A stretch of 64,000 nt of DNA, from positions 15,465 through 79,464 of the forward strand of contig CAYUTA010000004.1 of the NCBI GenBank assembly GCA_964447605.1. Reading direction: 5' to 3'. The notes below the pieces were generated by a model. That model searched no databases and was not told the DNA's origin. It saw only the letters and a list, made by a program, of their open reading frames with translations. The DNA comes from an uncultured Oscillospiraceae bacterium (GTDB taxonomy: Bacteria > Bacillota > Clostridia > Christensenellales > CAG-138). Each line of letters opens with the position of its first letter. The first letter of the stretch is position 1. The translations under genes and the position numbers were made by a program. Below, piece after piece: positions 33,947 through 45,183 of this stretch.

Positions 33947-34504
33947 TCACTTGCTTTCTCTACGGATTTTAATCAGCTTTAAGATGTCGCCATACATATG
34001 GTCAAACTGTTTGATATCTATCATTAACCATCTTTGCCCATTTCCTTCGTTGGTATGATTATAAATTTCTTTAATTTCTTTTGATAGCATTGGAAATAAA
34101 GCATTGAATTTTTCCTGTTCCTTTATTCCTATCACAACTAAAACTGTAAAATAGCCTTGTTTTGGATATATAACACAAAGTGATTTCCCTGCTTTTCTAA
34201 GTTTCACGTTCCACCCACGAAACCAAACATCTTTGCTGTACTCCACGTTACAAAGTGCCTGATATTCAGTATTTAAAAAATGAAAAAACTGATTAAAGAC
34301 CGTGTTATTTATGTATTGTTCTATTTCTTGAATGGTAGGTCGATGGTTTATATCTTTTAAATCTAACACTAAATTTCCTCCCAGGCGAATATAAAAATTA
34401 CCCATCCTGCACTGATGCAACAAATGCGGGAGATTATTTTCCATATTCAATATACCGTAATTCTTTGCTATCGTAAAGCGAATGGTTGCGGTGTTTTCAG
34501 CCAT
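33947..34504 (-). CDS. DUF3788 domain-containing protein
   Basis: HRPTIQEIEQYI, GWNVKLRKAGKSLCVIYPKQGYFTVLVVIG and GNGQRWLMIDIK match the DUF3788 pattern. The gene is very AT-rich (~32-35% G+C). The true start is probably an internal Met (34444 or 34405). Confidence 0.7.
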   Translation of the reverse strand: MAENTATIRFTIAKNYGILNMENNLPHLLHQCRMGNFYIRLGGNLVLDLKDINHRPTIQEIEQYINNTVFNQFFHFLNTEYQALCNVEYSKDVWFRGWNVKLRKAGKSLCVIYPKQGYFTVLVVIGIKEQEKFNALFPMLSKEIKEIYNHTNEGNGQRWLMIDIKQFDHMYGDILKLIKIRRESK

Positions 34505-34695
34505 TCGCTAAACGCCTGCAGTCACTTTGTTGCTCAAATGCTACCCGAAAGGGTAGGCCGGCATATTGTTTGTATTGACAAACAAACAGCTGGTTGAGGC
34601 GATGCCCCAAACCCCGTAAGCAGCGCGCGTGAACAGCCGTAACCATCCGATCAAACCTCCCCATGCCGCCCCATCCAAAGGCGTCCCTTTCTGTT

Positions 34696-34715
34696 TGGCG
34701 GAGAGACTGGGATTC
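34696..34715. repeat. distal att-like direct repeat (copy of the tRNA-Ser 3' end)
   Basis: TGGCGGAGAGACTGGGATTC is identical to 45096-45115. The flanking bases differ on both sides. Confidence 0.85.
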
Positions 34716-34976
34716 ACCGCTTCGCCTTCCGCAGCGCGCTCACACCGCTTGCAGCTAGGTGATCGAACCAATCCACAGCATCCCATACACTGTAGCATTT
34801 TTGCTCGTTCTTGGAGAGGAACGTTAAAAACGACTACTTTCATAATGATACGAAGTGTTTGCTGAAATCTTTACAAAAGACCGTGAACAACGGGAACAAC
34901 GACGATTGCAACGCAGCATAAAGAAACGAGATCATCTTGAACGCTGATAAGAACACGGGAGATAACGGGCGGTAGC

Positions 34977-35183
34977 ATGACCAAATCAAAATCCACTTCT
35001 CAACACAGCAGCAAAAGCAAATCAAATACACAAATCCCCGATCATGTGTTCGAGTCACTGGCGCGCTGCGCCCTGCCGCTGATACAGGAATACTTCAAAT
35101 CCGAGGAGGGGCAGCGTGAGTTTGCCGCATGGAAGGCGGAAAAAGGCAAGGTAAAGGGAAAAGTAGCTGATATGGAGCGGTAA
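34977..35183 (+). CDS. small hypothetical protein (mobile-element associated)
   Basis: 68-aa ORF with a Ser/Lys-rich N-terminus then IPDHVFESLARCALPLIQEYFKSEEGQREFAAWKAEK. I recall similar small ORFs on Clostridia integrative elements. SD is weak. Confidence 0.4.
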   Translation: MTKSKSTSQHSSKSKSNTQIPDHVFESLARCALPLIQEYFKSEEGQREFAAWKAEKGKVKGKVADMER

Positions 35184-35330
35184 CATGAGCGGGAGAGCCG
35201 AGAGGTTCTCCCGCTCAGACTGTCAAAGAAAGCCAAATCAAGCGAAAGCGAGAGAAGGCTTTCTTTTTGTAAGAAAGTGTTGCGGCAAAATAGATAACAC
35301 ATTAAAAGAGAATTGATTTAAGCAAATAGT

Positions 35331-35465
35331 ACCGTCACGGCACATCCACATTGCTAGTTTTTTAAGGTTCATCGCCGTGTATTTGAGTTTGACCCAGTTT
35401 GTGACCGCACGCAAGCCGCGGTGTTGCGTGTATTGCATACCGTATTTGGGGCATCGATGAAGTTT
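35331..35465 (-). pseudogene. C-terminal fragment of an IS1182/IS5-type DDE transposase
   Basis: KYGMQYTQHRGLRAVTNWVKLKYTAMNLKKLAMW matches the conserved C-terminal block (..HGMRYTQYRGL..V....L.FAAMNLKKLA.W) of IS1182-family transposases. No upstream catalytic domain is present. Confidence 0.6.
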
Positions 35466-35558
35466 TACTGAATGATACCGAGGGTTTTCTTGATTCTGCC
35501 CAGTGTTCTTGCATGGGAGCATACTTTTCAGCAGGGCGTGCTAACAGCTTCGATCCAT

Positions 35559-37115
35559 CTATACTTCTATTTTTTCCGCACTGTACCCTTTGTATTCTGT
35601 GGGGGTCATGTTTGTATAGGATTTGAACAGACGCGAGAAATACCGTGCGTCCTCATAGCCGCAAAGGCGTGCTATCTGGCCAACGTTCCATTGTTCATGC
35701 TCGTCAATCAATCGCTTAGCAAGTTCCATCCGCTTTTTGAGCACATAACGGCTCATCGTCAGTCCCGTTCTCTTCTTAAACAACCGTGCGAGATATTCAT
35801 AGCTGTAAAAGAACGTGTTGGTAATATCGTCAAGATTGTTCAGTGTTAGGTAGTATTCGTCGACGTGTGCGATTAAGCGTTCAGACAGCTTTCCGTCATC
35901 CTCGTGCACGTGCGTTCCTTGCAAAAAGCAGCGTCGAATGGCATACAAAAGGTGCTCTACCAGCTGCTCAGGTTGATTTTGTTCGCACAGACAGCGCAGA
36001 ATATCCATCTGCCAATTATCCCGCACAGATGCACGTGCCTTGGTCGGCATAAACTCAATCATACGCAACACATAGACCACGATGCGCTGAAAATCCTGTT
36101 GCGTAATATTGTTTTTCAGCATGAAGCCTAAAATCAGATGCAACTCGGCTTCTGCGCCGGCTATGTCACCCTGTTCAATATATTCTCTGAAGTTTTCATG
36201 AATACGAAGCTTTACGATCCGCAGTGTATCATCGCTTTCCAGCGTTTCATCCTGCTCTAGTGTAAACTGGCTGCCCCTTGCTAAAACAATGCGCTGCTTG
36301 AGAATATTTCTCATGCGCTGTGCGCACAGCCAAACATTGCCGTCATCAAAACGCTGGGTCGAGGCGCAAATGTTGATTGATAATTCCGGGCATGATTGCT
36401 GCAATACTTGGCAAAGCAACTCTGCTTTCTCTATGGCCGCAAAGGCTCGATCGTTTTGGAGCAGTAGACATATGGTTTTCTTGTTTACGCGGTCTTCGTC
36501 GGCTACATACCATCCGGGAAACTCCGGAAATACTTGCTGCATAATGCTATGCCAAAACAGTCCGGCCATCTTTTGATAGAAGAAGTCGTTGAGCACCTCA
36601 TCGTCCGCTTCGTAGATATAGTTTCCAAAGTTGACAATGAATAGAGCATACTCGTTTGATTGACCCGATAGGCGTTGATAAGACTCCGAATACCTTGTTT
36701 TGATGGATTTCCATTGCTTATCGGTTGTGATGGTACGTTTTAAGTCGTCAAGCGTTTCGCACAACGCCTCTGCTTCCAATGGCTTCAACAGATAGTTAAA
36801 AACGCCGCATTTTATCGCCTGCCGTGTATACGAAAAATCAGAATACCCCGACAGGATGACGACTTTAACTTCAGGGTAGCGTAGACTGAGCTGTCTTGCC
36901 AACTCCAGTCCATCCATGCGGGGCATTCGAATGTCGGTGAAAACGACCTGTGCGCTATGCAGCTGCACCATTTTTAATGCAGTTTCTCCGTCCGAACAAG
37001 CGGCTACTACTTTGAAACCTGAATCGCTTGACGCAATGCGCTCGCATATCGCCTCAAGCAAGGGTTCCTCGTCCTCAGCCACAACAACGCGAATTTTTCC
37101 CCTTGTCATTTCCAT
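35559..37115 (-). CDS. response regulator with AraC-type HTH output (YesN-like)
   Basis: CheY-like receiver (VVVAEDEEPL..FTDIRMPRMDGLEL) and C-terminal AraC HTH (ARLCGYEDARYFSRLFKSYTNMTPTEYK). Confidence 0.9.
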   Translation of the reverse strand: MEMTRGKIRVVVAEDEEPLLEAICERIASSDSGFKVVAACSDGETALKMVQLHSAQVVFTDIRMPRMDGLELARQLSLRYPEVKVVILSGYSDFSYTRQAIKCGVFNYLLKPLEAEALCETLDDLKRTITTDKQWKSIKTRYSESYQRLSGQSNEYALFIVNFGNYIYEADDEVLNDFFYQKMAGLFWHSIMQQVFPEFPGWYVADEDRVNKKTICLLLQNDRAFAAIEKAELLCQVLQQSCPELSINICASTQRFDDGNVWLCAQRMRNILKQRIVLARGSQFTLEQDETLESDDTLRIVKLRIHENFREYIEQGDIAGAEAELHLILGFMLKNNITQQDFQRIVVYVLRMIEFMPTKARASVRDNWQMDILRCLCEQNQPEQLVEHLLYAIRRCFLQGTHVHEDDGKLSERLIAHVDEYYLTLNNLDDITNTFFYSYEYLARLFKKRTGLTMSRYVLKKRMELAKRLIDEHEQWNVGQIARLCGYEDARYFSRLFKSYTNMTPTEYKGYSAEKIEV

Positions 37116-38881
37116 TCCAGACTACCTCCAAGCAGTATATCGCCGCCTTGTTGCGATGGTGTGATTTGGAAAACAAGTGCATTCTTGTAGCAGTGATGCA
37201 AACGTAAATATAGATTGACCAGGCCCATGCCATCTAGCTGCAAAGATTCCTCATGCGAGTGCTCGGCATAATGATGGCATCGCGCCTCGATTTGTTCTAC
37301 TTGTTCGGGCGTAAACCCCTGTCCGTTGTCCGTAATCCGAACCCGCCAACCGTCCTGCGTCAAAGTGCCAATGACGATAATCAGCGTGTCGGCACGGTTG
37401 GAGTATTTGAACGCATTTTCCACGATCAACTGTAACACAAGCTTTGGAATCTGAATTTGCATCATTTCGATGGGCACATCGATTTTTACTACCGCGCGCG
37501 GAAAACGCTCCTGCATAATGGCAATATAGCTGCGCAAAAAAGTAAGTTCTTCATATAAAGCGACGCCTTGTTCTGCGGGCTGGCTGATGTAACGCAGAAT
37601 GCTTGACAGATCACTGCACATACGGCAAACGGTTTTTGTTTCGCCCTTGTCGGCAAGCACGCTTATGGAGGCTAGGGTGTTATACAAAAAGTGCGGCTGC
37701 ACTTGTGCGTTGAGCGCCAAAAGCCGCGAGTGCATCTCGCCTGTTTTTGCAGTGACAACCTCAGACAGCGATGCTTGTAACCGCTCCGAAAGCGCCGTTA
37801 TGGCGCTTGCCATATTGTCTAACTCCTCGGTGTCAGATTCAACTTTCTCAAATCGAATATCCTGCGAAAAATCGAGAGCAGCAAGCTGCCGATCCATCTT
37901 CGACAGGGGTCTGGACAAATCGCGGCTTACGCGATATAGCATGGGTAAGGCCACCAAAGACAGTAGCGCGGCTAGCAGTATGGAGAAAAACAGAAACGAC
38001 AAGAGCTTATTGTAATACGTCATCACCGGTATGACATAGGCGGCATAAGCATTTGCGGAAAAAACCGGCACGATGCGCACCATGTTGCCTTTGTAACGAT
38101 ACGACGCGGGCTGAATCTCTCCATCGAACTGAAACGGTGCGATGGAAAAGTTTTCGCCGCCATAAAGGAATTGGCCGGTATTGCTGATAATATGCAGTTG
38201 AAGATGTTCAATGTTGGCGTTGTCGGCCAAGTTTTTGCAGAAGCGTTCAAATTCCATTGTTTGGATGCCGACTTCCAACATCGCCTGCGGACGAGCAAAT
38301 AGATTGTTGAGATTGATCGAACGCGATAGCAGCAAGAGGGACTCATCCGTATCCGCCTTTGTTCGGCCCGGTGTGTTTTTCAGGTAGGCGTTTTCGCTTT
38401 GCCGCAAAAGCAATGCCGAGCCGGCACCCGCATAATCTGCGTAGGTGTCGACCGGCTGCTGATACTCGCTGACAATGATTTCGCTACCCAGCCAGATATA
38501 ATAGCCGTCTCTTGTTGCAACTCCGACGCGGTAGCCTTTTTCAAACATTTTATACGCTTCCAGATACACGGTATTAAGCGCATCGGCTTGGTTTTCGCCG
38601 TTTTTAGCCGCAATAGGCAGGTCGTACAAAACAGATTTTTTGAAAACCTGTGAGTTGAGCAATTCCATGGAAAAACTGTTCAACTCTGAAAAATACATAT
38701 CCAAAGAGGTGTTGATTGCCTGCACCATTTGTTTTTGTGTGTCGATGATGCTGTTGTTAATATCCAGCCCAACGAACACCATGACAGCAATGATGCTGAT
38801 AATGAAGAACGCAGCAAACAGCCGCGCATACGCAGCAAACAGTTTATCCTGTATTTTTCGCTTCTGTCCTTGACGCTTCAA
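37106..38881 (-). CDS. sensor histidine kinase (YesM-like, His_kinase/HATPase_c)
   Basis: Two TM helices flank a large extracytoplasmic domain. H-box QVQPHFLYNTL, then an N-box/G-box region (IVENAFKY...ITDNGQGF). Overlaps the regulator gene by 10 nt. Confidence 0.9.
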   Translation of the reverse strand: MKRQGQKRKIQDKLFAAYARLFAAFFIISIIAVMVFVGLDINNSIIDTQKQMVQAINTSLDMYFSELNSFSMELLNSQVFKKSVLYDLPIAAKNGENQADALNTVYLEAYKMFEKGYRVGVATRDGYYIWLGSEIIVSEYQQPVDTYADYAGAGSALLLRQSENAYLKNTPGRTKADTDESLLLLSRSINLNNLFARPQAMLEVGIQTMEFERFCKNLADNANIEHLQLHIISNTGQFLYGGENFSIAPFQFDGEIQPASYRYKGNMVRIVPVFSANAYAAYVIPVMTYYNKLLSFLFFSILLAALLSLVALPMLYRVSRDLSRPLSKMDRQLAALDFSQDIRFEKVESDTEELDNMASAITALSERLQASLSEVVTAKTGEMHSRLLALNAQVQPHFLYNTLASISVLADKGETKTVCRMCSDLSSILRYISQPAEQGVALYEELTFLRSYIAIMQERFPRAVVKIDVPIEMMQIQIPKLVLQLIVENAFKYSNRADTLIIVIGTLTQDGWRVRITDNGQGFTPEQVEQIEARCHHYAEHSHEESLQLDGMGLVNLYLRLHHCYKNALVFQITPSQQGGDILLGGSLEWK

Positions 38882-38886
38882 ATATC

Positions 38887-40146
38887 TTATCCTCTTTGCA
38901 ATTTTTTGAAGCTCTCCAATGCAATCGTGCGACCCGTTAGGCGGGATTCCTCGGCCGCGAGTGCAACCAAATGGCTTTCCACGGAATCCTCTGCGGAGGA
39001 CTGCGCATACGCGCCGTCGCTTTCCACCGTGCGCAAAAATCCTCGCATGAATCTTTCGTCGCTGCCGCTATGCCCCGACGCATTGATCTTGACGATGTGT
39101 TCAGCGGTATCTCCACTCAAAAAGTCGATGTGCGTAATTCGGTTCTCTTCCATGTCGCAAAGAAGCTGACCGCGCGTGCCCATGATGTTCATGGTTCGAC
39201 TGCCTTTGCCCGTAAATGCCGACATGGTAAAGCTGGCCGTTACTCCATTTGTCAAAAGCAGATTCACAACCTGATGGTCAACCACGTCATTGTCGCAATG
39301 GTATACGCAACGCCCATAAGGCCCATCCTCAAGCGCCGCTGCGACATCTGCCTTGCCGCCGGAAAGAGCCACTACTTTCCGAATCGTTTCAGAATACCAC
39401 TCATCATGATCTAGGTAAATCTTTCCCGCATCGTATGGGCAGTCATATCTGGCCTTGCAGCCGTCAAGGCAGCGTTTGCTTGCGCCCTCCGGGGCATTTT
39501 CTGCGCAAAAGTGTTTCAATGATCCAAACGAAGACACGCTGATACAGTGTTCGTCCGTGAGCCACAGCAGTATGTCCATATCGTGACAGCTCTTTTGCAA
39601 AATCATCGGGCTGGATTGCGCTGTGTTGCGCCAGTTGCCGCGCACAAAGGAATGCGCCTGGTGCCAGTAGCCCACGCACTCAAGATGCTGAACGCATACG
39701 ATGTCGCCGATACAGCCGGTATCCAGCAAGGCTTTTACCTTTGTAAAGAAAGGCGAATAGCGCAGTACATGACAAACCGTGAGCGAACGCTGATAGGCCT
39801 TGGCATATTCACCCATGGCAACGCAGTCTTTTGCATCTGGACTCATGGGCTTTTCACAAAGAACATGATAGCCTTTTTCAAGAGCGGCTTGCACGGGCAG
39901 CGTGTGTTCTTTGTCCATCGTACAAACCAGAGCGCAATCGGCCAATTTTTCTTTTGAAAGCAGTTCTTTCCAATCAGAAAAAACCAAGTCCTCCTCTATT
40001 TGATGCTTGGCACAAAACGCAGCTCTGCGCACAGGGTTTGGCTCGGCAACGGCAACAATGCGGAATTCATTGGGATGCTCTAGGGCATATTTTGCATAGA
40101 CTTCCGCGCCGCGCTGTCCTGCTCCGATTAAAACTCCGGTAATCAT
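38887..40146 (-). CDS. Gfo/Idh/MocA family oxidoreductase
   Basis: Rossmann N-terminus MITGVLIGAGQRGAEVYAKY..FRIVAVAEPNP and the EKP motif (VLCEKPM). Confidence 0.85.
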   Translation of the reverse strand: MITGVLIGAGQRGAEVYAKYALEHPNEFRIVAVAEPNPVRRAAFCAKHQIEEDLVFSDWKELLSKEKLADCALVCTMDKEHTLPVQAALEKGYHVLCEKPMSPDAKDCVAMGEYAKAYQRSLTVCHVLRYSPFFTKVKALLDTGCIGDIVCVQHLECVGYWHQAHSFVRGNWRNTAQSSPMILQKSCHDMDILLWLTDEHCISVSSFGSLKHFCAENAPEGASKRCLDGCKARYDCPYDAGKIYLDHDEWYSETIRKVVALSGGKADVAAALEDGPYGRCVYHCDNDVVDHQVVNLLLTNGVTASFTMSAFTGKGSRTMNIMGTRGQLLCDMEENRITHIDFLSGDTAEHIVKINASGHSGSDERFMRGFLRTVESDGAYAQSSAEDSVESHLVALAAEESRLTGRTIALESFKKLQRG

Positions 40147-40165
40147 TTCTTATCCTCCAAAATGC

Positions 40166-40993
40166 TCAACCCTTGACAGAGCCTGCGACCATGCCCGAGA
40201 TGATGTGCTTTTGACCAAATACATAGACGATCAAAATCGGGGCGATGGCGTATAATATCGTAACGCATACCAGATTCCAGCTGGCGGTATAAGTGCCAAA
40301 GAAATTGTACACCTGCTGCACGATCACCGCTTTGTCGGGATCTGGCAGCAGATACAGCGGCACGGTAAAGTCATTCCAAACATTCAAGAAGTTGATCATA
40401 ACCACCGTGACCGTTACGGGCTTCATTGTAGGCATGATAACTTGGAAGAACAGCCGAAGCGGCCCTGCACCGTCCACAATGGCGGCTTCGTCCAGCTCCT
40501 TTGGAATACTGCTGATAAATCCATAGAACAAGAATATGGAAAGTGGCAGCACCAGTGCTGTAAATAAGAGTATCACTCCGGGTATACTGTTGTAAAGTGA
40601 CAGCCACCGCATCACTTTTACAACCGACACCATGCTCACCGGTACCATAAGGCCAATGGCAAAATACAGATAGAGTCGTTGGTTGAGTTTTGATCTGTTG
40701 CGGCTGATGACAAACGCGCACATGGACGAGCAAAGCACGCTAAGCGCGACGCTGCTAACGCTGATCACAAGCGAATTTATCAGCGAGCGCAGAATGTTGC
40801 CATCCTCCCATACTTTCTTGAAGTTCTCAAAGCGCAGTGTTTGCGGCAGCGTGAGCGACATAGTCAACGCTTCGGTCTTTGTCTTGAAGCTATTCAAAAC
40901 AACGATTGCAAAGGGAATCAGAACCACCAGCGCGAGCAGCCATGCAATCGATTCTTTTATGATAGTCGTGATCGTTTTTTTCATCGCTTTCAC
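40166..40993 (-). CDS. carbohydrate ABC transporter permease
   Basis: EAA loop ELDEAAIVDGAGPLRLFFQVIMPTMKP and 6 TM helices. Confidence 0.9.
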   Translation of the reverse strand: MKAMKKTITTIIKESIAWLLALVVLIPFAIVVLNSFKTKTEALTMSLTLPQTLRFENFKKVWEDGNILRSLINSLVISVSSVALSVLCSSMCAFVISRNRSKLNQRLYLYFAIGLMVPVSMVSVVKVMRWLSLYNSIPGVILLFTALVLPLSIFLFYGFISSIPKELDEAAIVDGAGPLRLFFQVIMPTMKPVTVTVVMINFLNVWNDFTVPLYLLPDPDKAVIVQQVYNFFGTYTASWNLVCVTILYAIAPILIVYVFGQKHIISGMVAGSVKG

Positions 40994-40994
40994 C

Positions 40995-41912
40995 TTAATC
41001 CTTGCTGTCCTTAATGCGCAACACCAACAGCCCGAAAATGGCCGTTATGAAAAATACAATCACACCGTAAGCGGCGCTCATGCCGTATAGCTTTTTGCCA
41101 AACTCTTTATAGACTGCCGTGTTGATGAGCTCTGTGCTGCCCGCGGGACCACCGCCAGTGAGCACAAACACGATATCAAAGGTCTTGAGTCCTTGCGAAA
41201 GGTTCAGCAACAGATTGATGATGAACGAGGGTATCATGCGCGGCATAGTGATAAAGAATAGCTTTTGAATGCTGTTTGCACCGTCGATGCCGGCCGCTTC
41301 ATACAAGCTCTTGTCAATCAACTGAAGACCGGCAAGATAGATGACCATGTTAAAGCCCGTTTGCTTCCATACGTCCACCGCCATGGTTGCGCCAAGTGCA
41401 GTTTCCGGCGTTGTTAGCCATGGATGAACAAGCGATTCTAGGCCGATCGCGCTCAAAAACTGGTTGAAAAACCCGCTTGTCATCAGCAGCGATCCAAACA
41501 TCAATCCGATGATGAGCGGCGACAACATGCTGGGCAAGAAAAAAATAGCGCGCATGGCATTGCGGCTCTTGAGCCCTTCGTTAAATGCAAGCGCAAGCAG
41601 AAAGCCCAGTACGTTTTTGAATACGGTGGTCACAAAAGCATACCATATGGTACGCACTATGATTGCAAGCAATTCAGGGTTGGAAAAGATCTTTTGAAAA
41701 TTGGCAAACCCGATGAATTTGGCTGTCTCCTGCGTTATTTTGATTGCATTCCAGTTGGTAAGCGAATAGTAGAAATTGATGACAACGGGTGTCATGAACA
41801 GGATGGTATACAGCAGCAACGCGGGTGCAGAAAACCCTGTTTTGTAGATTTTCCTCTGGTTCAAGGGAGAAGCCCCCTTCCTCTTGAAATTAAGAGGAGC
41901 GGCGGCAACCAT
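40995..41912 (-). CDS. carbohydrate ABC transporter permease
   Basis: EAA loop SLYEAAGIDGANSIQKLFFITMPRMIP and 6 TM helices. Confidence 0.9.
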   Translation of the reverse strand: MVAAAPLNFKRKGASPLNQRKIYKTGFSAPALLLYTILFMTPVVINFYYSLTNWNAIKITQETAKFIGFANFQKIFSNPELLAIIVRTIWYAFVTTVFKNVLGFLLALAFNEGLKSRNAMRAIFFLPSMLSPLIIGLMFGSLLMTSGFFNQFLSAIGLESLVHPWLTTPETALGATMAVDVWKQTGFNMVIYLAGLQLIDKSLYEAAGIDGANSIQKLFFITMPRMIPSFIINLLLNLSQGLKTFDIVFVLTGGGPAGSTELINTAVYKEFGKKLYGMSAAYGVIVFFITAIFGLLVLRIKDSKD

Positions 41913-41956
41913 GCCTGCCGCTCCCCTGAAACTCGGTAGCTTATTAGGTGTTAGCG

Positions 41957-43303
41957 TTATTCAGCAACGGTATCAAACATGGTGGCGCGATACTCGTCGA
42001 TGGCAGTGATGAACTGATCCACGCTCGTCGTGCCGGCTGCGAAGCCTTGCAGATACTTGTAGATGTCGCCATCCCAGTAGAGGACATATTTGATGAGCAT
42101 GACAACCGGGGTTTCACTGCGCTCGAGCAAATCGGTGGTTGCAGTGGTGGCAGAAACGCTCTCAACACCCTCAAACGCGGAGGACACGAGGTCGGTACGG
42201 GCTGCATAGTAGGTTTCGAGGTTCTCGTCGCGTGCAAGGAAGTCAAGGAAGAGCTTGCAAGCTTCGATGTTGGAGCTATTCTTGTTGATGTACTTGGAGA
42301 TGCCGCCGCCGTTGCTTACGGCAGCCTGGTTGTCTAGAAGCGGGCAGGGGAACATGCCAAAGGTATCGGTTGCGCCGTTTGCATACAGCTCAGCAGCATA
42401 GGCAGAGTAGGTGAACATCATGGCGCATTCGCGATTCTGAAGTGCGGGGTAGCTGCCAAACCAGTCTTCTGCCTGGCCATCGTTGGTGAAGTACTTGGGC
42501 GATCCGCCATCCTTGGCTTCCAGCAATCCCTTGACCTGCTCAAGGCCGTTGCGAAGCGCTGCGATGTCGGCCCACTTGTTGTCTTTTCCGGCATTGAGAT
42601 ACTCAACGTAATCCGGTTTTTCTGCTTCGATGGACGGCGTTAGAGCATATACCCAACTCTGCGTATGCCACACACCGTTGATGCCCTCGTACAAAGGCGT
42701 AACACCGAGAGCTTTGATCGCATCGCACAGAGCGATGAACTCAGCCCAAGTGGTGGGTACGGTCAGGCCGTTTTCTTCAAAGAAGGTTTTGTTGTACAGA
42801 ATGCCTTCAAAGTCAACGCCCCAGGTGGAGAAACCAAGCAGCTGACCATCAACGGTGTTGGCTTCCTTTGCCCAATCGACCAGACGATCTTCCCATTCGG
42901 AACCGGTCAAATCCAAGGCGATTTCGGGGATGCCGGCGGACTTCATTTCGCCGCCTGCTGCATACATGAACATATCCACAGCATTGCTGCCGCCGGACAG
43001 GCTCGTGCCAAGAAGCGTTGCATAGCCGTTATCGGGTGTCAGGAGAATTTTGACTTCGACGCCGGTTTCATCTTCGAACTTCTTGAACAGTTCACGGTCA
43101 ATATCCTTGATCCAGTTCTGCGAAGCCATCAGGGTGATGGAATTCGGCGGGGTGGCTTCCGATGTGGGTTCCTGCACGACCGCCGGCTTTTCGGCAGACG
43201 CGGCCGGGACAGTTTCTACAGCAGTTTGCGGCGTGGTGGTGCAAGCCATGGCCATGGGCAACACGATCAAGGCAACCAGCACAAGACAGAGCAGTTTTTT
43301 CAT
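41957..43303 (-). CDS. sugar ABC transporter substrate-binding lipoprotein
   Basis: Lipobox MKKLLCLVLVALIVLPMAMACTT and a family-1 SBP body. Confidence 0.85.
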   Translation of the reverse strand: MKKLLCLVLVALIVLPMAMACTTTPQTAVETVPAASAEKPAVVQEPTSEATPPNSITLMASQNWIKDIDRELFKKFEDETGVEVKILLTPDNGYATLLGTSLSGGSNAVDMFMYAAGGEMKSAGIPEIALDLTGSEWEDRLVDWAKEANTVDGQLLGFSTWGVDFEGILYNKTFFEENGLTVPTTWAEFIALCDAIKALGVTPLYEGINGVWHTQSWVYALTPSIEAEKPDYVEYLNAGKDNKWADIAALRNGLEQVKGLLEAKDGGSPKYFTNDGQAEDWFGSYPALQNRECAMMFTYSAYAAELYANGATDTFGMFPCPLLDNQAAVSNGGGISKYINKNSSNIEACKLFLDFLARDENLETYYAARTDLVSSAFEGVESVSATTATTDLLERSETPVVMLIKYVLYWDGDIYKYLQGFAAGTTSVDQFITAIDEYRATMFDTVAE

Positions 43304-43577
43304 TGCAGTTTCTCCTTTAAGATAATTTGATGTGCTTGCAGGAATTTACTCCCTGCTCTGTCTATTACACTAGCATTATGATTCCGTTTCAAACAGGCAC
43401 AGGCTTGACAACCCGATGTGGACAAAATTGATATTTTGGTAAAAGCAGCTTTTTCCCACACAAAGAGTGCGGCATAATACATATAGACCGCTTCATGAAC
43501 CTGCGATGCAATGCAAGCTATGCCGCTGCATCATACCATAACAACGATAGAACAATCAAATTCTTAAGGAGCATACT

Positions 43578-44585
43578 ATGACATCCTCATGGGAAACCAT
43601 CACCGCTTGCGGTGGCAATCGCCAAAGGTTACAGCGCATCACATGGCCTTATGACAAGTATCCCGACATGCCGCAACTGACCGCCGGTGCGCGCATTACG
43701 TTGCTCGACACCGTGGGGCCTGGGGTCGTCACGAATCTGCATGTTTCCAACTATGAATATCTCGATGATGTACTCGAGAGCAGCAGCGCGCGGGAGCCGG
43801 ATGCAGCAAGCCGCTTGTTGATCGAAATTACCTACGATCATCATGCCGTTGCCGACATTGCCATGCCGTTGTTCGACTTTCTTGGCGACGTAGATGCCGC
43901 TTGCGATTTCTATTCCACCTGCTATTTTTCCAAAGTGCGGCTTTCGCATAACTTTCGCCTGCCGATTCCGTTTCGTCAAGCCATCCGCATCGACATTGTG
44001 AATCCCACGAAAACCGACCTGATCGGCTATGCAGATCTGCAGTGGGAAGCACTCGACGCATTGCCGAAAGGCTGTGGATACCTGAGCGTGGATTATCGCC
44101 GCGGATGCGCGAACTTGCCAGAGGAAATCGTTACACTGTGCGATATTCAGGCAAAGGGAAGCATCGTTGCCCATTGGTTTTCCATTTGCAGCGACTTGCC
44201 CTTTGCAAAGGAGGGTCAGTATGTTTGCGAGGGGAATCAGGAATTCTACCTGGACTACGAAACCGAACCCTCCCTTGAATACCTTGGCACCGAAGACGTC
44301 TACGGCTACTCTTGGGGCTTTCTCGGTTCTGCGAGCGATGGCTACAGTGCCATTATCCGCTATGATACAGATCAACAGGGTGTTGCAACTATTTCCATGC
44401 TGCGCTGCCGTACCCTGGATCGCATTCCGTTTGAACGTGCCTGCAAGGTGTCGCTCGATTATACGCAGGAGTTTTTTTCCAAGCTTTCGAAAAACCCGCT
44501 GCATCAAACAGGGGTCTTTCGCGACCGTCTGGGCGCAAGTTTTGCTGCCGAATACAGTAGCTGCTTTTATTATTACAGAGCATAG
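43578..44585 (+). CDS. DUF2961 / glycoside hydrolase family 172 protein
   Basis: AAGGAG SD. GPGVVTNLHV and CEGNQEFYLDYETEPSLEYLGTEDVYGYSWGF match the DUF2961 hallmark (EGDE..Y.DGE..P...GTGTEDYF). Confidence 0.7.
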   Translation: MTSSWETITACGGNRQRLQRITWPYDKYPDMPQLTAGARITLLDTVGPGVVTNLHVSNYEYLDDVLESSSAREPDAASRLLIEITYDHHAVADIAMPLFDFLGDVDAACDFYSTCYFSKVRLSHNFRLPIPFRQAIRIDIVNPTKTDLIGYADLQWEALDALPKGCGYLSVDYRRGCANLPEEIVTLCDIQAKGSIVAHWFSICSDLPFAKEGQYVCEGNQEFYLDYETEPSLEYLGTEDVYGYSWGFLGSASDGYSAIIRYDTDQQGVATISMLRCRTLDRIPFERACKVSLDYTQEFFSKLSKNPLHQTGVFRDRLGASFAAEYSSCFYYYRA

Positions 44586-44955
44586 CTTTCCTGATACGGC
44601 CTGTTTTCAAACCATTCTTGGGGCTTTTTTGCGCAACTTTCGGTAGACTATTTTTCCAGATCATTTTCTCCATCACGCATTCCTCCGCCTGCCCTCGAAT
44701 CGCATTCATCGCGCCGACCCATGCCATTTGGTCACATGCTTTTCCTTCTTCCGTAATGCCTTGCGACTTTGCAAGCTGTAGCATGTATTCCCATACTTGC
44801 TCTTTACACAGCTCATTCCGCTCAACAAGCCAGTTTTCCAACTCTCCAGAAAACAGCAATTCTGTATAAAGATTCTGATTGTACTGCTTCATGTGCGCAA
44901 GCAACCTGCGTCCGTATTTGCCTATGTTCCCCTCGTTGATTTGTGTTCTGCTCAT
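44389..44955 (-). CDS. tnpV: TnpV-like transposon protein with aberrant 3' extension
   Basis: IGKYGRRLLAHMKQYNQNLYTELLFSGELENWLVE...GITEEGKACDQMAWVGAMNAIRGQAEECVMEKMIW matches TnpV of Tn4451-type elements over the first ~100 aa. The remaining ~85 codons overlap the convergent GH172 gene and look non-native. Confidence 0.6.
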   Translation of the reverse strand: MSRTQINEGNIGKYGRRLLAHMKQYNQNLYTELLFSGELENWLVERNELCKEQVWEYMLQLAKSQGITEEGKACDQMAWVGAMNAIRGQAEECVMEKMIWKNSLPKVAQKSPKNGLKTGRIRKAMLCNNKSSYCIRQQNLRPDGRERPLFDAAGFSKAWKKTPAYNRATPCRHVQTECDPGYGSAAWK

Positions 44956-45095
44956 GTTCTTGTCCTCCTGTTTGTTGTTTTATCAGAAGTGCTAAAAGCT
45001 GTCGTGTGCCACAGCAGACGACATAGCACAAATATACAACAAATCCGAACCCTTCACCGATCAATATCGGGTTCGAGTTCGGATTTGAATTTGAA

Positions 45096-45115
45096 TGGCG
45101 GAGAGACTGGGATTC
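45096..45115. repeat. proximal att-like direct repeat (3' end of tRNA-Ser)
   Basis: Identical 20 nt to 34696-34715. Confidence 0.85.
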
Positions 45116-45183
45116 GAACCCAGGGTCCCGTCAGGGACACGGCATTTCGAGTGCCGCACGATCGACCACTCTGACATCTCTCC
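45096..45183 (-). tRNA. tRNA-Ser (anticodon CGA)
   Basis: The minus strand reads GGAGAGATGTCAGAGTGGTCGA..GCGGCACTCGAAATGCCGTGTCCCTGACGGGACCCTGGGTTCGAATCCCAGTCTCTCCGCCA. It has a 7-bp acceptor stem, a long variable arm, a T-loop GGTTCGAATCC, anticodon loop CU-CGA-AA, and an encoded CCA. Confidence 0.9.

Follow-up and report, generated by a model that had tools for sequence, protein, structure and literature searches.

The 10.4-kb stretch between positions 34696 and 45115 of the window (the whole 64,000 nucleotides of DNA analyzed here) consists of foreign DNA sitting at a serine tRNA gene: a gutted mobilizable element that has kept its sugar-uptake cargo and none of the genes for its own movement. 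We consider it probable that it represents an immobilised remnant of an integrative mobilizable element (IME) at the 3' end of tRNA-Ser(CGA), that the part extending from the relaxase to the large serine recombinase (LSR) was deleted, and that the direct repeat around it stems from a separate event in the T-loop of the tRNA.

Integration site and direct repeat

The tRNA-Ser(CGA) gene (45096-45183, minus strand) is intact, being detected by ARAGORN and by the Rfam tRNA model (44.5 bits). Its 3' 20 nt, TGGCGGAGAGACTGGGATTC (proximal copy, 45096-45115, minus strand), recur with 0 mismatches (20/20 nt identical) at 34696-34715 (minus strand), where the distal copy is a tRNA 3' fragment extending from the T-loop (TTC|GAAT) to CCA. 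The two copies are spaced by 10,400 bp. No further match was found in the window at up to two mismatches, and none of 100 shuffles contained any match. In the whole assembly (126 contigs, 2.75 Mb), the 20-mer and each 12-mer inside it are confined to these two sites, making this the genome's only such pair. Outer and inner sequences diverge at once on both sides of the copies; thus the repeat is exactly 20 nt long. The initial annotation had described an exact recurrence of the tRNA end between unrelated flanks as a signature of integration at a tRNA 3' end, and these data agree with it on each point, with a repeat of the tRNA end bounding foreign DNA.

The distal copy is probably the displaced original tRNA end. 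It retains tRNA-type spacing, not a recombinase-side arm. Moreover, the 16 nt to its left (34680-34695, minus strand) are 14/16 identical to the sequence found directly after tRNA-Ser(CGA) in a genome of the same family (G006), which supports this assignment and marks them as the ancestral downstream flank of the tRNA. The empty site had been predicted to join the tRNA to the flank beginning at 34716; this has to be corrected, as the tRNA would join the flank ending at 34695. Of five tRNA/tmRNA genes in this genome that were searched for repeats of their ends, including four that neighbour recombinases or element relics, only tRNA-Ser has one.

Composition and foreign origin

The island was described from the start as visibly lower in G+C, and its value is indeed 0.491, compared to 0.58 for the genome and 0.588 and 0.575 for its two flanks; among 885 genome windows of equal size, none reaches so low a value. 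Apart from short pieces, its DNA is absent from 40 relatives, compared at the family level only, and native terminators directly follow the tRNA-Ser(CGA) genes of relatives. A metagenome collection queried with the flank plus the repeat gave 0 matches, and no same-species empty site was found; a metagenome scan with the island-specific hairpin loop also gave 0 matches. Exact-protein look-ups of the ROK regulator, its zinc-ribbon neighbour and TnpV found none on record. A native region in which the repeat arose by chance or as an unrelated conserved feature is refuted in practice. Nothing was found in its favour, and the shuffles, the uniqueness of the pair, the extreme G+C, the mobile-element hallmarks described below and the absence of the region from relatives all argue against it.

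The tRNA-proximal end

The tRNA is directly followed by the element terminus (45040-45095, minus strand), which comprises a 9-nt spacer and a hairpin with a 13-bp stem (AAATCCGAAC...GTTCGGATTT). It was defined by its fold, its recurrence at 72 loci, its spacing and a relative's empty site, from which the hairpin is missing. The predicted fold has an energy of -28.2 kcal/mol (z -3.0). The right-arm 20-mer occurs in exact form at all 72 loci, after many different tRNAs, and in nearly all of them it lies 8-10 nt past the tRNA CCA. The distance from T-loop to hairpin is fixed at 26 nt in 56/75 instances and is 27 nt in the island, a small deviation that speaks against the assignment. A hairpin with the A(A/T)CCGAAC arm, placed directly after the tRNA CCA and about 14 nt past the crossover, is present at 45040-45087. 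In relatives, the left arm serves as the recombinase half-site (P'), and the hairpin looks like it doubles as a terminator for the tRNA.

Further inside lies tnpV (44650-44955, minus strand; about 100 native codons), already reported near the tRNA end and matching PF14198 with an E of 1e-23. Its stop codon has been lost, and the frame continues to 44389 (ORF 44389-44955), overlapping the 3' end of the GH172 gene. Over residues 1-99, the protein is 68-72% identical to TnpV of intact relatives. The genome holds a second hairpin/tnpV locus at tRNA-Glu on contig C15, where no distal repeat was found.

Intact relatives

The initial annotation had proposed a search for intact relatives with an integrase, and such relatives were found, the integrase being an LSR. 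Where TnpV is 68-72% identical, the relatives also have genes for a resolvase, Mob_Pre, an HTH protein and an LSR, as well as the small gene. They are elements of 6-14 kb, arranged as tRNA, spacer, hairpin, often tnpV, variable cargo, a gene of 60-70 aa, the Mob_Pre relaxase, replication/regulator genes, HTH and LSR, with the LSR reading frame extending across the far junction. No near-identical intact copy of the island was found, the closest TnpV being about 70% identical. Tandem accretion at a single target gene is common among related loci.

One tRNA-Pro site is empty in L108 and occupied in L107 and L103, indicating that the hairpin arrives with the element. In the occupied sites, attR reads GTTCGGATTT-N13-AGACCA and is followed by host flank. 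Among complete elements, 17/22 have a 6-nt repeat and 17/22 have GTTCGGAT-N15-NN at the LSR end. The far junction of the reference clade (the L103, L084 and L102 elements), GTTCGGAT-N15-NN-(A/G)CCA with a 6-nt repeat, is not found in the island. The only recombinases seen inside hairpin-bearing elements are LSRs. The relics in the island assign it to an IME of the LSR family with a Tn4451-like gene set, and not to a tyrosine-integrase island. The element family is widespread in Clostridia, and the spacer/hairpin/tnpV end and the small gene are its hallmarks.

The distal end and absence of mobility genes

At the distal end lies a 68-aa gene (34977-35183, plus strand), homologous to the small gene that immediately follows the Mob_Pre relaxase gene of intact relatives; it shares 62% identity with its 63-aa counterpart in L103 (tblastn E 2e-18). 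Homologues occur in 20/22 complete elements and adjoin tnpV in many hairpin loci; a plasmid search with the protein gave no match. This gene, first labelled a small CTn-like ORF, is more precisely the most conserved accessory gene of the element family. The idea of mobile-element relics at both ends holds for TnpV and for this ORF, and less so for the IS1182 fragment. The latter (35238-35522, minus strand) is a possible C-terminal scrap of a transposase, as its matches to NF033551 (E 6e-4, positions 456-488 of 488) and PF13751 (E 5e-3) are both far below cut-off.

The breakpoint zone (34716-34976) is the expected place of the relaxase, the replication-like genes, the HTH gene, the recombinase and the recombinase-side att arm. 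No element module protein matched this zone by tblastn, and the island contains neither a GTTCGGAT arm nor a short CCGCCA scar; where the arm is expected, immediately inward of the distal copy, 1/8 positions match. Approximately positions 34750-34858 hold a truncated copy of a multi-copy 150-nt sequence, with matches in G016 (5 copies), G020, G005 and contig C12 of the same genome. This sequence was considered as the right end of a TnpB/IS605 element and rejected, as 0/4 carrier genomes had a Cas12f1-like_TNB match. Rfam searches on it and on the mini-inserts described below gave nothing.

No Phage_integrase (PF00589) or Recombinase (PF07508) domain was detected on the contig (C4), the search for Phage_integrase covering six frames, which bears out the reported lack of a tyrosine or serine recombinase gene. 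Thus, there is no integrase gene inside the island, and the LSR and HTH genes are absent from its far end. No Mob_Pre relaxase was found anywhere in this genome. As it lacks a relaxase, an LSR and the att arm on the LSR side, and no close LSR exists in the assembly, the island is probably immobile. The earlier picture of an immobilised element with retained cargo is supported: integration and transfer genes are gone and the sugar module is intact. Were it excised in trans by a recombinase from another part of the genome, the island would be a still-mobile CIME. Both repeat copies are perfect, and other contigs encode 6 LSRs and 3 tyrosine recombinases, some adjoining tRNA/tmRNA genes. However, these LSRs are only distantly related to those of the family (E 1e-11 to 1e-29), the recombinase-side arm is missing, and neither a relaxase nor a recognisable oriT-bearing module is left. 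Residual mobility is thus very improbable.

Proposed history of the island

In the history that we favour, the LSR of the relatives would recombine at the final two acceptor-stem bases of the tRNA. The incoming element would supply a new discriminator, CCA and terminator hairpin, so that the tRNA stays intact. All that remains in the island is the hairpin and tnpV, together with the cargo slot and the small gene; everything from the relaxase through the LSR, including the att arm, would have been lost by deletion, and IS-like scraps lie at the breakpoint. Such a deletion would allow neither excision nor mobilisation, and the segment would persist as a vertically inherited cargo island.

The repeat has to be accounted for separately. 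As the scar of the family is 6 nt long in most complete elements and the 20-nt repeat starts in the T-loop, the repeat is probably the scar of a different event. Most likely, the tRNA was split in the T-loop by a separate site-specific integration, before the arrival of the IME or together with it, and this would have displaced the original tRNA 3' end, which still adjoins its ancestral flank. The island is therefore likely to be composite. The misfit between the two repeat lengths means that a second event must be assumed, of which there is no recombinase trace. Since the assembly is a MAG that is 93% complete, a cognate recombinase could sit in the missing part. A search for complete T-loop-type elements via the L066-type LSR in 400 genomes of the order (E 1e-80) found none and was uninformative.

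A single integration can also be envisaged, in two forms. In the first, a tyrosine-integrase island entered by a T-loop crossover, tnpV, the small gene and the hairpin were passengers, and only the integrase was lost. An identity block from T-loop to CCA does fit the textbook tyrosine-integrase pattern, reportedly set out by Williams in 2002. Moreover, related genomes have mini-inserts of 158-173 nt at tRNA-Arg, with repeats of 21-25 nt that start in the T-loop, and some of them bear the same hairpin beside the tRNA. Nevertheless, neither the six-frame search of the contig nor tblastn revealed a Phage_integrase relic, LSRs are the only recombinases found in hairpin-bearing elements, and the spacing between the hairpin arm and the tRNA end fits LSR junction geometry. 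We regard this form as unlikely.

In the second form, which we rate somewhat lower still, one LSR-type IME had an attachment site with 20 nt of tRNA identity, and the repeat would be its LSR scar. Repeat length does vary among LSR relatives (6, 9, 12 and 15 nt), and the LSR of L066 is directly followed by a 15-nt tRNA block. Against this stand the 6-nt repeat that predominates among complete clade elements, the tRNA-type spacing kept at the distal copy in place of a GTTCGGAT arm, and the inner arms of the closest relatives, which are not tRNA-like. A composite island, with an IME remnant and a separate T-loop event, thus accounts best for the data.

Cargo

The cargo is predicted from domain matches to be an intact sugar module, consisting of a GH172/DUF2961 protein, an ABC importer, a Gfo/Idh/MocA oxidoreductase and a YesMN-like sensor pair. 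The DUF2961/GH172-family protein (43578-44585, plus strand) matches PF11175 (E 7e-26). All the other cargo genes are on the minus strand. The sugar ABC importer (40166-43303; SBP_bac_1 and BPD_transp_1) consists of a solute-binding protein (41957-43303) and two permeases (40995-41912 and 40166-40993), and the importer module contains no ATPase gene. The oxidoreductase (38887-40146) matches PF01408 and PF02894; its NCBIfam matches, to inositol, levoglucosan and glycoside-3 dehydrogenases, are all sub-threshold. The sensor pair (35559-38881; His_kinase, HATPase_c, Response_reg and HTH_AraC) comprises a YesM-like sensor kinase (37106-38881) and a YesN-like response regulator with an AraC domain (35559-37115). 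The island accounts for the arrival, in a host of 58% G+C, of a sugar-utilisation module that is centred on GH172 and has a sensor of its own. The module would now be fixed cargo and no longer mobile DNA.

Comparison with known systems

The mobilizable transposons Tn4451/Tn4453 and Tn6104-Tn6106 of Clostridia encode the LSR TnpX, TnpV, the resolvase-like TnpY, the Mob/Pre protein TnpZ and the small TnpW (PMC3158075; PMC5704250). The intact relatives share with this type a terminal LSR, TnpV, a small resolvase, Mob_Pre, a small ORF after the relaxase and cargo in between. They differ in their target: Tn4451-type elements use a 2-bp GA with low or other specificity, whereas the relatives target the very 3' end of a tRNA gene, and the tRNA is rebuilt. 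From the set of TnpX-type LSR, TnpV and Mob/Pre, the island keeps TnpV alone; LSR, resolvase and relaxase are lost.

A CIME (cis-mobilizable element) is a decayed ICE or IME in which the att sites persist and the genes for integration and transfer are missing (Guedon et al. 2017, PMC5704250). The island resembles one in having lost both sets of genes while keeping flanking repeats and cargo. However, a CIME keeps functional attL and attR, whereas the island lacks the recombinase-side arm of the family attR, and its repeat probably stems from a different event. Tyrosine-integrase IMEs at tRNA genes (NBU1, NBU2 and IME_Sag2603_tRNAlys) have the same 3'-end target, a repeat of the tRNA end and an undisrupted gene; unlike them, the island has neither a tyrosine integrase nor a relic of one, and its element genes are those of the LSR family. 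SCCmec, which integrates at the 3' end of rlmH through the LSR CcrAB with repeats of 15-18 nt, is likewise an LSR element that carries the end of its target gene and so preserves it, and it illustrates that LSR repeats can exceed 2 bp. Its target is protein-coding, however, and it has neither a T-loop-like arm nor a relaxase.

A wider clade of putative tRNA-targeting recombinases

The LSRs of the relatives belong to a clade in gut Clostridia with at least 80 loci at 55-75% identity, and one scan gave 585 tblastn-confirmed stretches. We suggest, tentatively, that this very large clade might use the universal tRNA T-loop as one DNA-binding motif. On the tRNA side, the distance between GTTCRANN and the crossover is 10 nt. 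On the element side, GTTCGGAT lies 15 nt from the crossover, with an inverted copy 14 nt away on the other side, which is the left arm of the terminator hairpin. The two sides thus differ by 5 bp, the offset between attP and attB half-sites that is reportedly predicted by structural work on serine integrases by Rutherford et al. in 2013. With this T-loop-like site geometry, the clade would insert into many different tRNAs (Leu, Pro, Arg, Trp, Val, Ser and Glu), each time at positions 71-72 of the acceptor stem, and leave them undamaged.

Under the working rule, it is tyrosine integrases that target tRNAs, and the genes disrupted by serine-recombinase IMEs are dispensable ones; undamaging insertion at tRNA ends is listed in an IME review for tyrosine integrases only (PMC5704250). 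If confirmed, an LSR family that targets tRNA 3' ends through a site imitating the T-loop would contradict this rule, and it would provide serine integrases with natural landing pads in nearly every genome. The island itself is an ordinary dead genomic island of a large, little-described element family. Its relics led to a coherent and abundant family of mobilizable elements with a serine recombinase that would target tRNA 3' ends.

Structure and gene content of the insert

The gene for tRNA-Ser(cga) is on the minus strand (45096-45183), so the insert lies downstream of it. Its 3' end (TGGCGGAGAGACTGGGATTC, plus strand) was found again, identical, at 34696-34715, as the initial annotation had reported. 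The repeat is exactly 20 nt long, because the flanking bases differ at both sides, and its copies are spaced by 10,400 bp. The window contained no further match at up to 2 mismatches, and shuffled sequences gave none. When the whole assembly was scanned (126 contigs, 2.75 Mb, 93% complete), these two copies were the sole sites of the 20-mer and of all its 12-mers. The lower G+C content ascribed to the island was also confirmed: 49.1%, compared with 58% for the genome and 58.8% and 57.5% for the two flanks, and 0 of 885 equal-size windows of the genome had a G+C as low. The empty site had been expected to join the tRNA to the flank on the 34716 side; the tRNA would instead join the 34695-side flank. 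The predicted empty site would be tRNA-Ser(CGA) directly followed by AACAGAAAGGGACGCC.

From tRNA-Ser outwards, a 9-nt spacer is followed by a strong hairpin (45040-45087; -28.2 kcal/mol, z -3.0) and by tnpV (44955 to about 44650; PF14198, E 1e-23). The tnpV stop codon is gone, and the frame extends to 44389, overlapping the adjacent gene. The cargo beyond tnpV encodes a DUF2961/GH172 protein, a solute-binding protein with two ABC permeases, a Gfo/Idh/MocA oxidoreductase, and a YesM-like histidine kinase with a response regulator carrying an AraC domain. The small ORF noted near 35 kb is real (68 aa, 34977-35183) and has a counterpart in intact relatives; between it and the distal repeat, 260 nt contain no recognisable gene. 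Of the proposed IS1182 transposase fragment, the tail was detected, with a weak match. The absence of an integrase extends to the whole 83-kb contig, which has no tyrosine- or serine-recombinase domain; the three tyrosine recombinases and six large serine recombinases (LSRs) of this genome are all on other contigs.

A conserved hairpin terminus next to tRNA genes

The tRNA-proximal end of the island is a conserved element terminus. In a locus with a distant TnpV match (L017), the hairpin and the tnpV start are common with the window and adjoin the 3' end of another tRNA. The 20-mer of the hairpin right arm, GGTGAAGGGTTCGGATTTGT, was found exactly in 72 stretches of Clostridia genomes, including Oscillospiraceae, Faecousia, Christensenellaceae and Ruminococcus, with many matches at contig ends. 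In nearly all these stretches the hairpin starts 8-10 nt past the CCA of a tRNA or a tRNA 3' fragment, and the identity of the tRNA varies between loci. The T-loop motif GTTCRANN and the hairpin left arm A(A/T)CCGAAC are exactly 26 nt apart in 56 of 75 instances, and 27 nt apart in the window.

Elsewhere, this genome contains another relic of the family (C15:17896-18300, corresponding to L095:2896-3300). There, the hairpin, with 1 mismatch, comes after tRNA-Glu(ctc), together with a tnpV pseudogene that has an internal deletion and a start codon mutated to ATA. No distal repeat was present on its contig.

Intact relatives

The nearest TnpV proteins in a large protein collection were 68-72% identical, and their contigs carry complete elements. 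In L103 (L097 and L107 show this element as well), the order is tRNA-Pro, hairpin, tnpV, an IS256 insertion, cargo, a small resolvase, a 63-aa gene, a Mob_Pre relaxase, HTH_36, a sigma-like protein, HTH_3 and a 559-aa LSR. The order is unchanged in L102, where the cargo differs and the LSR is 527 aa long. The mobilizable transposons Tn4451 and Tn6104-6106 have this gene set (PMC3158075, PMC5704250). A tblastn match (E 2e-18) pairs the 68-aa ORF of the window with the 63-aa gene of L103, at 62% identity. The genes that bound the cargo slot, tnpV and the small one, are therefore both retained in the window, in the right order and orientation. The part from relaxase to recombinase is entirely missing, and no near-identical intact copy of the island's element was found.

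Using an alignment of three LSRs as query, 80 more loci (55-75% identity) were recovered from 585 confirmed stretches. A tRNA, the hairpin and an LSR were present together in 22 of them, delimiting elements of 5.9-10.7 kb. Among these complete elements, a homologue of the small gene was found in 20, an HTH_3 gene in 14 and TnpV in only 3. At L035, L046 and L076, a tRNA-Leu copy without its D-arm region lies upstream of the hairpin, and LSR gene remnants precede tRNA-Leu; these loci exemplify how elements of this family accrete in tandem and decay.

Integration of the relatives

Strains sharing an MgtC neighbour have either an empty site (L108 and others) or an occupied one (L107/L103). With junctions marked by a slash, the empty site reads ...CACCCAGACCA/tcgtcggagc..., with the native terminator present. 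The occupied site reads ...AGACCA/gagaaaaat, then the hairpin, on the tRNA side, and ...GTTCGGATTTaccgaaaatcggtAGACCA/tcgtcggagc... on the far side. Comparison of the two indicates that the hairpin belongs to the element and that the repeat is 6 nt long. The layout is the same in L102 and L084, with repeats of 9 and 6 nt, respectively. In 17 of the 22 complete elements the repeat is 6 nt (two bases, discriminator and CCA), and an LSR-side junction of the form GTTCGGAT-N15-NN was likewise seen in 17. The attP of the clade can be reconstructed from sequence as a putative GTTCGGAT-N15-NN-N14-ATCCGAAC.

In the tRNA, the T-loop motif is 10 nt from the two bases of the crossover; in the element sites, the matching motif is 15 nt from them on one side and 14 nt on the other. 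For serine integrases, a 5-bp outward shift of the zinc-ribbon-domain motif reportedly separates attP from attB half-sites, a finding attributed to Rutherford et al. 2013. Taken together, the motif spacing and this shift fit an LSR reading the T-loop, and we infer that the clade LSR would use it as its attB motif.

Among strains of one species, the site downstream of one tRNA-Pro (L108-L114 versus L107) forms a hot spot: it contains nothing, the LSR element, or a sortase with a 520-590-aa protein. In some strains a separate LSR with a DUF4368 domain lies a few kb upstream. In the genome under study, LSR genes also lie beside tmRNA/tRNA genes (C50:10036-13626; C119:4-2214): two in tandem directly downstream of the tmRNA gene, pointing towards it, and another adjoining tRNA-Pro(ggg). 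They suggest further serine-recombinase elements at tRNA/tmRNA genes, with a different layout.

Losses in the island and origin of the 20-nt repeat

Neither the GTTCGGAT arm nor a short CCGCCA scar was found inside the island, and tblastn of the island revealed no fragments of LSR, relaxase, resolvase or HTH genes. The LSRs of this genome are only distant kin of the family LSRs (E 1e-11 to 1e-29), and a Mob_Pre relaxase is absent from its 93%-complete assembly. With arm, LSR and relaxase missing, the island is left without enzyme and without one of its two sites.

In the distal repeat copy, tRNA-type sequence continues for 14 nt upstream of the expected crossover and ends in the T-loop (GGTTC/GAATCC); the copy is thus a displaced tRNA piece, not an element arm. 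Of the 16 nt beyond the distal copy, 14 are identical to the bases directly after tRNA-Ser(CGA) in G006, the sole relative also sharing the gene on the other side of tRNA-Ser. This match indicates that the ancestral tRNA was split in its T-loop. Such a split, with an identity block up to CCA, is said to be the usual mark of tyrosine integrases (attributed to Williams 2002). No tyrosine-integrase relic is present in the island. T-loop-start repeats of 21-25 nt occur around such elements in related genomes, as 158-173-nt inserts at tRNA-Arg. In L044 and L087 the insert separates the tRNA from an older hairpin element, and in L058 and L069 it bears the hairpin itself.

We therefore prefer a two-event origin, in which a T-loop-type integration and an LSR-type integrative mobilizable element (IME) would have been superimposed. 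A later deletion would have removed the IME mobility genes and everything up to the displaced tRNA end. The sequence of events is an inference, and so is the agent behind the 20-nt repeat. Less likely origins are a single island of the tyrosine type, or an LSR site whose identity to the tRNA is unusually long.

Some of the miniature tRNA-Arg inserts are longer than 173 nt. The hairpin is also borne by those at L054, L093 and L090, and further inserts were seen at L066, L071 and L047. Every one opens with an inverted T-arm copy (GGGACTCGAA) and contains conserved stem-loops; none had an Rfam match. They may be non-autonomous relatives of tRNA-integrating elements.

Breakpoint zone and neighbouring segment

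A conserved sequence of about 150 nt, which lies upstream of unrelated genes in several genomes of the same family (loci L196-L202), is present as a truncated copy at 34750-34858. Five nearly identical copies occur in G016, each of them at a contig end, and G020 and G005 have one each; the single copy elsewhere in this genome (C12:45780-45925) is directly upstream of a catalase gene. It had no Rfam match, and a link to TnpB was rejected, since the carrier genomes have no TnpB. This sequence could be a shared leader, or else one end of an element present in several copies. Given the truncated copy and the weak IS1182 scrap, the distal 850 nt are a patchwork.

Just outside the distal repeat, the segment 33423-34695 has a G+C of 42% (33% over 34000-34499) and a lone DUF3788 gene (33947-34504). 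It starts only about 16-35 nt past the ancestral tRNA flank, so the same tRNA-Ser hot spot may have received this segment in an older insertion.

Classification and significance

The island is a decayed IME. Its gene set is nearest to Tn4451 and the Tn6104 group, and the closest concept is the cis-mobilizable element (CIME; PMC5704250). Recombinase, relaxase and intact far junction are all lacking, so the island is a remnant, not a member in working order.

For this genome the finding is an ordinary one. A review of IMEs lists only tyrosine integrases for those targeting tRNA genes; serine-recombinase IMEs, by its account, insert inside genes and have very short repeats (PMC5704250). No description of a serine recombinase aimed at tRNA ends was found in the literature searched, which excluded subscription journals and databases of islands (for example Islander and TIGER). 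Because that review ties tRNA-targeting IMEs to tyrosine integrases only, the family behind these relics is of more interest than the relics themselves.
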